Virus record (IMG/VR): IMGVR_UViG_3300045125_000040
Span: 32,001-96,000 of that record
DNA length: 64,000 nt
Source of the DNA: a virus
Direction: 5' to 3' (one strand)
The notes beneath the pieces were generated by a model. It was not told the origin of the DNA and made no database searches. It was given only the letters and a program-made list of their open reading frames with translations. A program made the translations under genes and the position numbers. Positions 553-3,631 of the stretch are shown here, piece by piece. Positions within the stretch are counted from its first letter, which is position 1, and each line of letters begins with the position of its first letter.

Positions 553-847
553 TTGAAGACTTTGAAAATACTCTTGACAAGTAGTCTGTTATTTGCTAAT
601 ATAGCACATAGCTTCGGATGATATCACATGTGAAAAGGATGTCAAGAAGGATCACATTGTTCACTGTAAGACAAAGAAGGTGATGGATGTTTCGCTGGTT
701 AGCATTAATGGTGGTGAGTGTAACGCTCCTTCATTTCACTGGCATGGTGAAGGTAAGTTCGCCTTACCAGGAACAAAAGACTGCTCTTATGTTGGTGCAG
801 TAACATTATCAGTTGACGGACATACAAAAACATTTGCTCCGTTATGA
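553..847 (+). CDS. small secreted Cys-containing protein (one apparent indel near 610)
   Basis: GGAG at 541, TTG start, signal-like KTLKILLTSSLLFANIAHA, then SDDITCEKD...FAPL* with 4 Cys. Confidence 0.5.
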
Positions 848-853
848 GTAAAG

Positions 854-980
854 TTCGCCTTCATCACGGTAACATCTGTCTTGGGTTTGGTATCCAGATT
901 AAAGATGCCGTATTGAGTTACGGTTCGAATAACCATTAGTTGAAAGACTATAAAACAGGTGTTACTTTGATGAAGGCGAA
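854..980 (+). ncRNA. unknown structured RNA closed by a 26-bp stem homologous to the pre-tmRNA acceptor/IVS stem
   Basis: 854-879 pairs with 955-980 (1 mismatch, 2 G-U); loop holds several short hairpins; lies in a non-coding gap. Confidence 0.5.
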
Positions 981-989
981 TAAATAGAA

Positions 990-3380: not shown

Positions 3381-3601
3381 ATGCTTAAAAATTCAAACTT
3401 CGTAAATGAGATGGATCTTCTATGTAAAGAAAAAAATATTGAATATATTGATGCTATAGTATTTTGGTGTCAAAAAAACAATCTTGAAATTGAAACTGCT
3501 GCTTACTGGGTTAAAAAAGACCCTGTTATGAGGTTAAAAAATCCGAGGTAGAAGCAGAAAATTTAAATTATATGAAAAAAGGATCACGTCTCCCAATATA
3601 A
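3381..3601 (+). CDS. 33: late-transcription coactivator gp33
   Basis: YIDAIVFWCQKNNLEIE...EAENLNYMKK..RLPI; synteny with gp59 and gp32. Confidence 0.8.
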
Positions 3602-3604
3602 ATA
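3597..3604 (+). promoter_or_regulatory. T4-type late promoter
   Basis: TATAAATA upstream of the HEXXH gene. Confidence 0.5.
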
Positions 3605-3631
3605 TACGGTTAACCATTGTTAGGAGGCTTT

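Follow-up and report, generated by a model that had tools for sequence, protein, structure and literature searches.

A free-standing paralogue of the excised tmRNA spacer hairpin belongs to a variable cassette family upstream of a phage permuted tmRNA gene

RESULTS

A copy of the spacer hairpin upstream of the tmRNA gene

The window analyzed here is a stretch of 64,000 nucleotides (nt), bases 32001 to 96000 of the 158.8-kb IMG/VR virus record IMGVR_UViG_3300045125_000040, which is 96% complete, has a G+C content of ~34%, and carries T4-type baseplate and tail-sheath genes. Near its start lies a circularly permuted gene (ssrA) for a two-piece transfer-messenger RNA (tmRNA), and the region upstream of it, positions 846 to 980, is a free-standing paralogue of the spacer hairpin removed from the phage's own two-piece tmRNA precursor. 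This element is one unit of a family of tandem cassettes that number from zero to at least seven upstream of the tmRNA. Its most likely role, which the comparative sequence data make probable on balance, is that of an RNA processing and expression unit from which a small RNA would be excised.

The tmRNA is of the permuted alphaproteobacterial type (997-1279; RF04321, 78.5 bits; RF01849, 72.8 bits in Rfam), and all of its parts and those of the cassette lie on the plus strand. Its acceptor piece (997-1059, by Rfam) contains the T-arm, CGCCTCC (1049-1055), and ACCA (1056-1059); the true intervening sequence (IVS, or spacer) is a 71-nt hairpin (1060-1130) with a stem formed by 1061-1068 and 1118-1125 and an insert at 1069-1117; and the coding piece (1131-1279, by Rfam) opens with GGGGGCG (1131-1137) and includes the tag frame (1193-1237, ANDNFAPFDYALAA*). 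The cassette begins with a leader (846-855) that also supplies the TGA stop of the upstream open reading frame (ORF) and that was delimited by comparing filled sites, empty sites, and the leaders of a second sub-lineage. The leader is followed by the pseudo-acceptor 3' strand CGCCTTC (856-862); A-UCA, which is the discriminator A and the equivalent of CCA with C74 changed to U (863-866); the position of a C.U mismatch and the 5' arm of the spacer stem (867-875, GGTAACAT), with pairing continuing to ~882; and an 83-nt insert, or "cargo" (876-958). The 3' half consists of the other arm of the spacer stem (GTGTTACT) with the mismatched U and a UGAU leader that pairs with AUCA (959-971), and of the pseudo-acceptor 5' strand GAAGGCG plus AA (972-980), which repeats the 9 nt that open the coding piece except that A3 replaces G3. 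Through the change of C74 to U, the cassette has a base pair where the true tmRNA has the C74.A(-2) mismatch.

Direct repeats connect 856-875 with 1049-1068 (85%) and 959-980 with 1118-1139 (91%), and a 29-nt inverted repeat, 854-882 with 952-980, is 86% complementary. The fold of 826-985 reached -62 kcal/mol, compared with -30.3 +/- 3.5 for shuffled sequences (z -9.1); this signal stems mostly from the closing helix, and the natural precursor 826-1145 folded into two independent hairpins. Repeats and fold thus bear out the initial annotation of this DNA, which had described duplicated arms of the acceptor and IVS stem. It had also correctly read a shared register with the C.U mismatch right after NCA, the pairing-preserving changes (C-G to U-A, U.G to U-A, A-U to G.U, and C74.A to U-A), and the loss of the alanine identity pair and of CCA, since the window cassette has A3-U70 and UCA where G3:U70 and an encoded CCA would stand. 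Its term "covarying" holds in part: one true double compensatory change exists within this pair of hairpins, and the strong covariation comes from relatives.

The cassette helix runs from the acceptor stem through NCCA/UGAU into the loop-closing stem, in the same register as in 99 distinct true IVSs. The cassette does not lie inside the permuted tmRNA gene: its 5' flank is the end of an ORF and the 10-nt leader, and its 3' flank retains just 9 nt of the coding piece, without D-loop or tag. When 500-1400 was searched against Rfam at E values up to 10, the cassette gave only noise (mir-9437 and CRISPR-DR33, E 2.7 to 4.6).

Compensatory change in the basal helix

Related loci were collected from viral contigs by boundary, tmRNA, and acceptor-piece patterns, which yielded ~126 phage tmRNA loci and 52 loci of the window's sub-lineage (loci and contigs bear L numbers below). 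Searches of viral contigs with a 15-nt pattern for the boundary and a gapped one for the insert gave mostly chance matches and only L159 and L240 as new loci, and one metagenome scan returned no contigs beyond those found earlier and no more diverged homologues of the window insert. In blastn, 560-1300 had zero matches among 50,697 deposited phage genomes.

In an alignment of 22 distinct upstream units (A1), gap-free at both ends, the 23-pair basal helix was 95.5% paired, and both sides had changed at 12 pairs. The covariation score was 0.427, compared with 0.159 for shuffles (0/500 reached the observed value), and slid registers scored at most 0.135. Seven features were invariant in 22/22 cassettes: A73, C75, A76, U-1, G+1:C72, G-3, and U-4. 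Bacterial RNase P reads U-1, G+1:C72, A73, and the CCA end as determinants. Four fully complementary types of pseudo-acceptor stem differ from that of the tmRNA through double changes. G3:U70 occurred in an intact stem in none of the 24 distinct upstream cassettes listed; G was kept at position 3 only in two register-shifted or chimeric units, L006 c1 and L382 c2, and all others had a Watson-Crick pair in place of G3:U70. UCA was present in 17 of these 24, and L388 has a CCA-type cassette.

The spacer-stem columns of the upstream cassettes contained ~19 G.U pairs and zero A.C pairs, and the overall non-Watson-Crick totals were 34 G.U versus 13 A.C, the conserved C74.A included. This bias of the spacer stems toward G.U, with no A.C, is strand-specific and speaks for pairing in plus-strand RNA. 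Among 99 distinct spacers of true tmRNA precursors, ten stem positions were 92 to 99% paired, with four to seven pair types each, and the C74.A(-2) mismatch was present in 95 of the 99. Permuted tmRNA genes of alphaproteobacteria (Hyphomicrobiales and others; contigs L434-L553) possess an ACCA-stem...stem-(C/U)UGAU|G helix with short loops, and since they already have it, the processing helix predates the phage cassettes. Several contigs of SAR86-labelled metagenome-assembled genomes also matched the tmRNA 5' pattern.

Presence, absence, and copy number

Filled and empty sites define the unit to the nucleotide. In L019, L063, L128, and four other relatives, CCGTTA is joined directly to TAAATAG, the ORF running straight into the acceptor piece, and 846-980 of the window is inserted exactly at this CCGTTA|TAAATAG junction; both flanks of L019, one of these cassette-free relatives, match the window at 97% identity. 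The distance from ORF stop to acceptor piece is 7 to 8 nt in these seven cassette-free loci, 123 to 184 nt in 13 loci with one cassette (the window among them), and 227 to 249 nt in five loci with two (L005, L012, L375, L388, and L391). It is 380 nt in L384, whose two cassettes are one RNA unit and one ORF unit, 391 nt in L006 with three cassettes, and at least 965 nt in L382, which has at least seven cassettes, ORF units among them. No boundary motif was found outside the tmRNA locus in the 158.8-kb genome or in the records of five relatives, which marks the element as a cassette tied to one locus rather than a repeat scattered through the genome.

Exchange and content of the inserts

The window's upstream insert (876-958) is 96 to 99% identical in eight relatives. 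Global alignment against shuffles related it to the tmRNA spacer of L008 (54/83, z 5.4), with which it has blocks of sequence in common; blastn did not make this link. Clustering gave ~79 insert families across ~170 loci; in an Rfam gathering search on the loci of 20 relatives no insert matched a known family, and the window insert is likewise without an Rfam family.

Identical inserts recur in different contexts. The window's tmRNA insert (1069-1117) equals that of upstream cassette 1 of L382 (L382:2793-2881) at 49/49 positions, the acceptor pieces of the two being only ~91% identical; full identity of the inserts despite this divergence suggests recent horizontal exchange of modules. Likewise, cassette 1 of L388 is the same as the tmRNA spacer of L381 (71/71), and lineages with identical inserts have left flanks that are just ~80% identical and acceptor pieces that are ~90% identical. 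None of the genomes examined carried the same insert twice. Stem-plus-insert modules are, as judged from these sequence identities, exchanged between cassettes and the true tmRNA spacers of different phages.

That some inserts are functional is clear from their predicted content, which includes a pseudoknot, a tRNA, and mini-ORFs. In one insert superfamily (A2; L054:3723-3802, L075, L081, L108, L057, L058:1025-1087, L093, L062:456-531, and L103:2006-2079), the 6-nt loop of a 5-bp hairpin pairs with a downstream hexamer to form an H-type pseudoknot. The loop and its partner have switched jointly, at all six positions in L103 and at one position in L054 and L075, and no Rfam family matches this superfamily. 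A complete tRNA-Arg(TCT) (3532-3608) lies within the permuted tmRNA spacer of L095 (L095:3299-3720); in the window, this tRNA species lies downstream of the tmRNA. Mini-ORF cassettes encoding ~45 to 60 amino acids (aa), with a Shine-Dalgarno sequence immediately past ACCA, were found in L382 (2780-3740), L384, L388, L391, and L376, and the last codons and stop of these units use the conserved 3' boundary. In L388 and L391, an ORF unit is inside the tmRNA spacer itself and is followed by a second RNA unit.

Proposed origin and processing

The cassette would have arisen when a block in the 5' portion of the permuted ssrA gene was duplicated in tandem. This block would have begun with the leader, taken in the acceptor 3' strand, ACCA, and the spacer hairpin, and stopped 8 to 9 nt into the coding piece; the upstream copy would then have lost its T-arm and body by internal deletion. 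The residue would be CGCCUUC/GAAGGCG, AUCA/UGAU, one pyrimidine.U mismatch, and the spacer stem, which together make a helix of ~29 bp closing the 83-nt insert. TAAATAGAATTG, the sequence in front of the acceptor piece, occurs once more in the second sub-lineage, in front of each first cassette; at the other end of the cassette, 8 nt from the start of the coding piece run into TAAATAGAATTG. The window leader, together with the next base (846-856), is probably a diverged copy of TAAATAGAATT, which precedes the tmRNA acceptor piece. Two GC-richer loci, L071 and L116, have a tandem repeat that spans the complete acceptor piece and the spacer and reaches 24 nt into the coding piece, and their relative L023 is single-copy; this less decayed copy is what would be expected if the 5' part of the gene had been duplicated in tandem and had then lost internal sequence. 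Tandem duplication and decay have been proposed as the origin of permuted tmRNA genes themselves (summarized in PMC3978253).

The L116 and L071 copy lies ~230 nt upstream of G+1 of the tmRNA, and its middle unit reads as a tRNA-like domain in unpermuted order, ~90 nt long, that has G3:U70 and ACCA but no tag. This unit may be a mini-tmRNA lacking the coding sequence.

For expression, we propose that the hairpin would be transcribed on the plus strand together with the upstream ORF, the tmRNA, or both. The cassette would fold apart from the tmRNA hairpin, its diverged stem limiting cross-pairing with the true acceptor strands, and the host enzymes that split pre-tmRNA would cut the base of the helix: RNase P 5' of G972, with 3' trimming at A863-UCA and possibly a first cut by RNase III across the helix of 20 to 29 bp. 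The acceptor piece would thereby be freed from the upstream mRNA, and a stem-capped RNA of ~105 nt would be released. With 29-nt arms that are 86% paired and conserved U-1, G+1, A73, and C75, the element is a candidate substrate of RNase III and RNase P: the helix would suit RNase III, and the invariant nucleotides match known determinants of RNase P. The processing cassette suggested in the initial annotation is the best fit to the comparative data, namely the compensated helix and the exchanged inserts, the cleavage itself being putative.

Neighboring genes and features

A gene for a small protein (574-847, plus strand) lies upstream of the cassette. Relatives (e.g., L381, L390, and L007) encode a small, Cys-containing protein of ~90 to 100 aa with a signal-peptide-like N terminus, for which no Pfam or PHROG family was found. 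In the window, a 1-nt difference near 606-610 disrupts the frame, leaving an ORF at 680-847 (55 aa); the differences between the window and L016 in this gene are mostly synonymous by eye. A sigma-70-like TTGACA-17-TAATAT at 574-602 overlaps the 5' end of the gene and was not relied upon because it lies within the 5' coding part. An ORF at 844-939 (31 aa), which has an ATGA overlap with the upstream stop, was rejected as coding: all relatives are one T shorter in the T-run 886-888, which shifts the frame, and the frame is thus not conserved.

The 7-bp hairpin at 833-852 (plus strand), which had been placed near where a T-arm would be, is present in the minimum-free-energy fold and is identical in all sub-lineage 1 copies. 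Its reading as a T-arm is not supported, the 5' arm being the last codons of the ORF and the 3' arm the cassette leader; inspection by eye showed no equivalent in the second sub-lineage.

At the downstream edge of the cassette (979-986, plus strand) is AATAAATA, a T4-late-promoter-like motif. At its position, directly 5' of the acceptor piece, TATAAATA is found in the empty-site relatives and several others. By its position and by what is known of T4, AATAAATA may act as a late promoter; TATAAATA was not enriched in the window (15 found versus 12.4 expected).

ARAGORN did not call the permuted tmRNA of the window; it called those of L016, L382, L388, L116, and L095. Downstream, Rfam placed the tRNA-Arg at 1898-1971, and a perfect 11-bp stem with a 27-nt loop (1978-2026) starts 7 nt past it (1965-2045, z -4.1). 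This hairpin could be a terminator or another stem-closed unit, and a quick regular-expression search revealed no counterpart in relatives. The ORF at 2042-2236 matches a SegE-type GIY-YIG domain and homing-endonuclease PHROGs, and the ORF at 2333-2677 adjoins it; the two may represent a homing endonuclease that has been split or has decayed and that, at ~0.9 kb from the tmRNA, could promote local recombination. In L058, a manA RNA motif (1273-1446; RF01745, 55.9 bits, barely above the gathering score) was found directly 3' of the phage tmRNA.

DISCUSSION

Several observations weigh against the excision of a small RNA from the cassette. The insert (876-958) taken alone has a z of only -1.75, with 11/200 shuffles folding equally well, and the homologous insert of L008 has a z of -0.08 and another predicted fold, so that the small hairpins that had been drawn in the insert are not above chance. 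Of the 52 sub-lineage loci, about half are without a cassette, so the element is dispensable. The pairing statistics are inflated, since cassettes were picked by a filter of at least 7/8 stem pairs and at least 5/7 acceptor pairs and many of them share descent. Stems are carried along with inserts that come from true spacers, so their complementarity could be a legacy of the source rather than a sign of upkeep at the new site, and chimeric cassettes have just 5/7 or 6/7 pseudo-acceptor pairs (L005 c1, L012 c2, L382 c2, and L382 c4). Finally, cleavage by RNase P should be weakened, because no T-arm stacks on the stem of 7 to 9 bp and the UCA/UGA pairing buries the 3' end.

Much of this would also be expected if the cassettes were a neutral or selfish by-product of a recombination hot spot in co-infections, where unequal exchange leaves idle extra hairpins whose arms are complementary through quasi-palindrome correction by template switching at the DNA level, or through recent copying from functional spacers. 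This alternative is possible, although we consider it distinctly less probable than RNA excision. Quasi-palindrome correction through template switching is known in T4, and it would perfect the upstream helix because CCA and G3:U70 are no longer needed there; that helix is indeed more perfect than the one in the tmRNA, with C.A and G.U replaced by Watson-Crick pairs. Presence and absence among 97%-identical phages, chimeric stems, fast turnover of inserts, the absence of a fold signal in the window insert, and the GIY-YIG homing-endonuclease remnant ~0.9 kb downstream, which could raise local recombination, all agree with idle hairpins. A DNA cruciform, however, would not explain the strand-specific abundance of G.U and absence of A.C in spacer stems, which indicate pairing in RNA, and eight boundary nucleotides stay constant while adjacent pairs covary freely. 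Idle duplicates are also at odds with the lack of any examined genome holding one insert twice, with identical inserts common to lineages whose left flanks are only ~80% identical, and with the structured RNAs, the tRNA, and the ORFs bearing ribosome-binding sites that some inserts contain. A dedicated enzyme moving a DNA-level site, as with integron attC hairpins or miniature inverted-repeat transposable elements (MITEs), is very improbable. The inverted-repeat ends, the arrays, gain and loss exactly at the hairpin base, and a conserved mismatch of the extrahelical type would suit such a site, but the 96%-complete genome contains no tyrosine integrase (PF00589; controls were positive), and the confinement of the boundary motif to the tmRNA locus in this genome and the five relatives' records leaves inverted ends without the dispersed copies of a MITE or insertion sequence. 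The G.U asymmetry again speaks against a DNA-level helix.

The remaining alternatives keep the helix in RNA and give it another purpose. That it is a 3' structure of the upstream mRNA, either a stabilizing hairpin or a terminator or attenuator separating the small-protein gene from the tmRNA, is improbable: it is very stable, begins at the ORF stop, and is seen only behind that ORF where the upstream gene is visible, but seven relatives have the ORF without any hairpin, and arrays of 2 to 7 units, ORF units, and identity with excised tmRNA spacers are unexpected for a terminator. A simple terminator had been named in the initial annotation as an alternative and is a weak reading, since a scan of 846-980 found neither promoter nor terminator, with nothing at 980, and no U-tract follows the hairpin (the sequence past 980 is AUAAAUAGAAUU). 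Still less credible is the tRNA-like decoy, or sponge, for RNase P, SmpB, alanyl-tRNA synthetase, or the CCA-adding enzyme that had been raised alongside the processing cassette. The cassette retains U-1, G+1:C72, A73, C75, and A76 and has a hairpin located where a T-arm is expected, but ARAGORN and the Rfam tRNA and tmRNA models detected no tRNA-like features in 826-985, which is without T-arm, T-loop, D-loop, or cloverleaf. SmpB binds the elbow formed by D-loop and T-arm, which is missing here, and the phage has no SmpB gene. Moreover, no cassette has G3:U70 in an intact stem, and the 3' end is buried in the helix; the decoy loses its support because the supposed T-arm hairpin (833-852) was not seen, by eye, in sub-lineage 2.

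Excision of a small RNA thus remains the reading that we prefer. A broader and more tentative proposal, which we would put well below it in likelihood, is that the tmRNA locus of these aquatic T4-like phages may be a capture-and-expression array for small RNAs and mini-genes, in which the helix mimic serves as a universal "plug" and the inserts (pseudoknots, tRNA-like pieces, and the 83-nt RNA of the window) are functional accessory RNAs that phages trade horizontally. If so, host tRNA-processing enzymes would release any insert in stem-capped form, for example for host takeover or counter-defense. The permuted-tmRNA spacer, usually treated as discarded, behaves here as a modular socket that has been multiplied into arrays in one group of phages, and since related phages carry none to at least seven swappable hairpins, this supposed waste may serve phages as a scaffold for small RNAs. 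Should the hairpins be processed, they offer a simple and general route to many small RNAs per transcript with host tRNA enzymes only, and a ready source of uncharacterized phage RNAs; otherwise, they clearly illustrate, in a natural setting, the remodeling of a permuted RNA gene through tandem duplication and decay. We found no published description of the upstream cassettes in the literature searched, and the initial view of an undescribed phage RNA module holds for that literature and for Rfam.

The closest known relative of the cassette is the IVS of permuted tmRNA genes. Circularly permuted two-piece tmRNA genes were reportedly treated by Keiler, Shapiro, and Williams in 2000. Like an IVS, the cassette combines an acceptor stem, A73-U(-1), position 74 opposite A(-2), C75-G(-3), A76-U(-4), a stem of 8 to 11 bp, and a loop; it is clearly IVS-derived and exchanges inserts with true IVSs. 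Unlike an IVS, it is located outside the tmRNA gene and flanked by pseudo-acceptor strands without T-arm, D-loop, or tag, and such cassettes are without G3:U70, usually without CCA, and arranged in tandem arrays. The gene forms of two-piece tmRNA, including the IVS, are reviewed in the 2025 tmRNA database paper (PMC11915505), where a tRNA (tRNA-Ala) inside one IVS is termed "unique" and arrays or swapping are unmentioned.

In its evolution, the cassette resembles the PeSL (promoter early stem-loop) cassettes of T4-like genomes (PMC2839356 and PMC4122927), in which short conserved stem-loop repeats bracket variable, non-essential modules and exchange between repeats leads to gain, loss, and replacement among close relatives. 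PeSLs hold a sigma-70 promoter and a terminator between ORFs and are dispersed in hyperplastic regions, whereas here the repeat is a mimic of the tmRNA acceptor and IVS, the module is within the hairpin and mostly non-coding, the locus is single, and 846-980 has neither a strong sigma-70 early promoter nor a terminator stem-loop. Integron attC cassettes are likewise tandem, exchangeable units with imperfect inverted repeats at one defined locus, but in the present case there is no integrase, the cargo is within the hairpin rather than beside it, and the evidence is for an RNA-level helix. RNase III processing stalks are known from the leader-trailer helices around 16S and 23S rRNA and from sites in T7 early RNA. 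As in those stalks, a long, near-perfect helix is formed by flanking sequences and the released RNA would be the "loop"; the invariant nucleotides at the base of the cassette helix, unlike those of stalks, resemble RNase P determinants rather than plain double-stranded RNA. Two small stable RNAs of T4, species 1 and 2, are part of the transcript of its tRNA gene cluster, from which they are processed, and their function has long been obscure. These are also non-tRNA small RNAs on a tRNA-type precursor, freed by host tRNA-processing enzymes, but they are fixed genes rather than swappable hairpin cassettes and have no tie to a tmRNA gene. By analogy, then, the cassette would work most like a processing stalk or a passenger RNA of a tRNA cluster, and it appears to evolve like the shuffling cassettes of the PeSL type.

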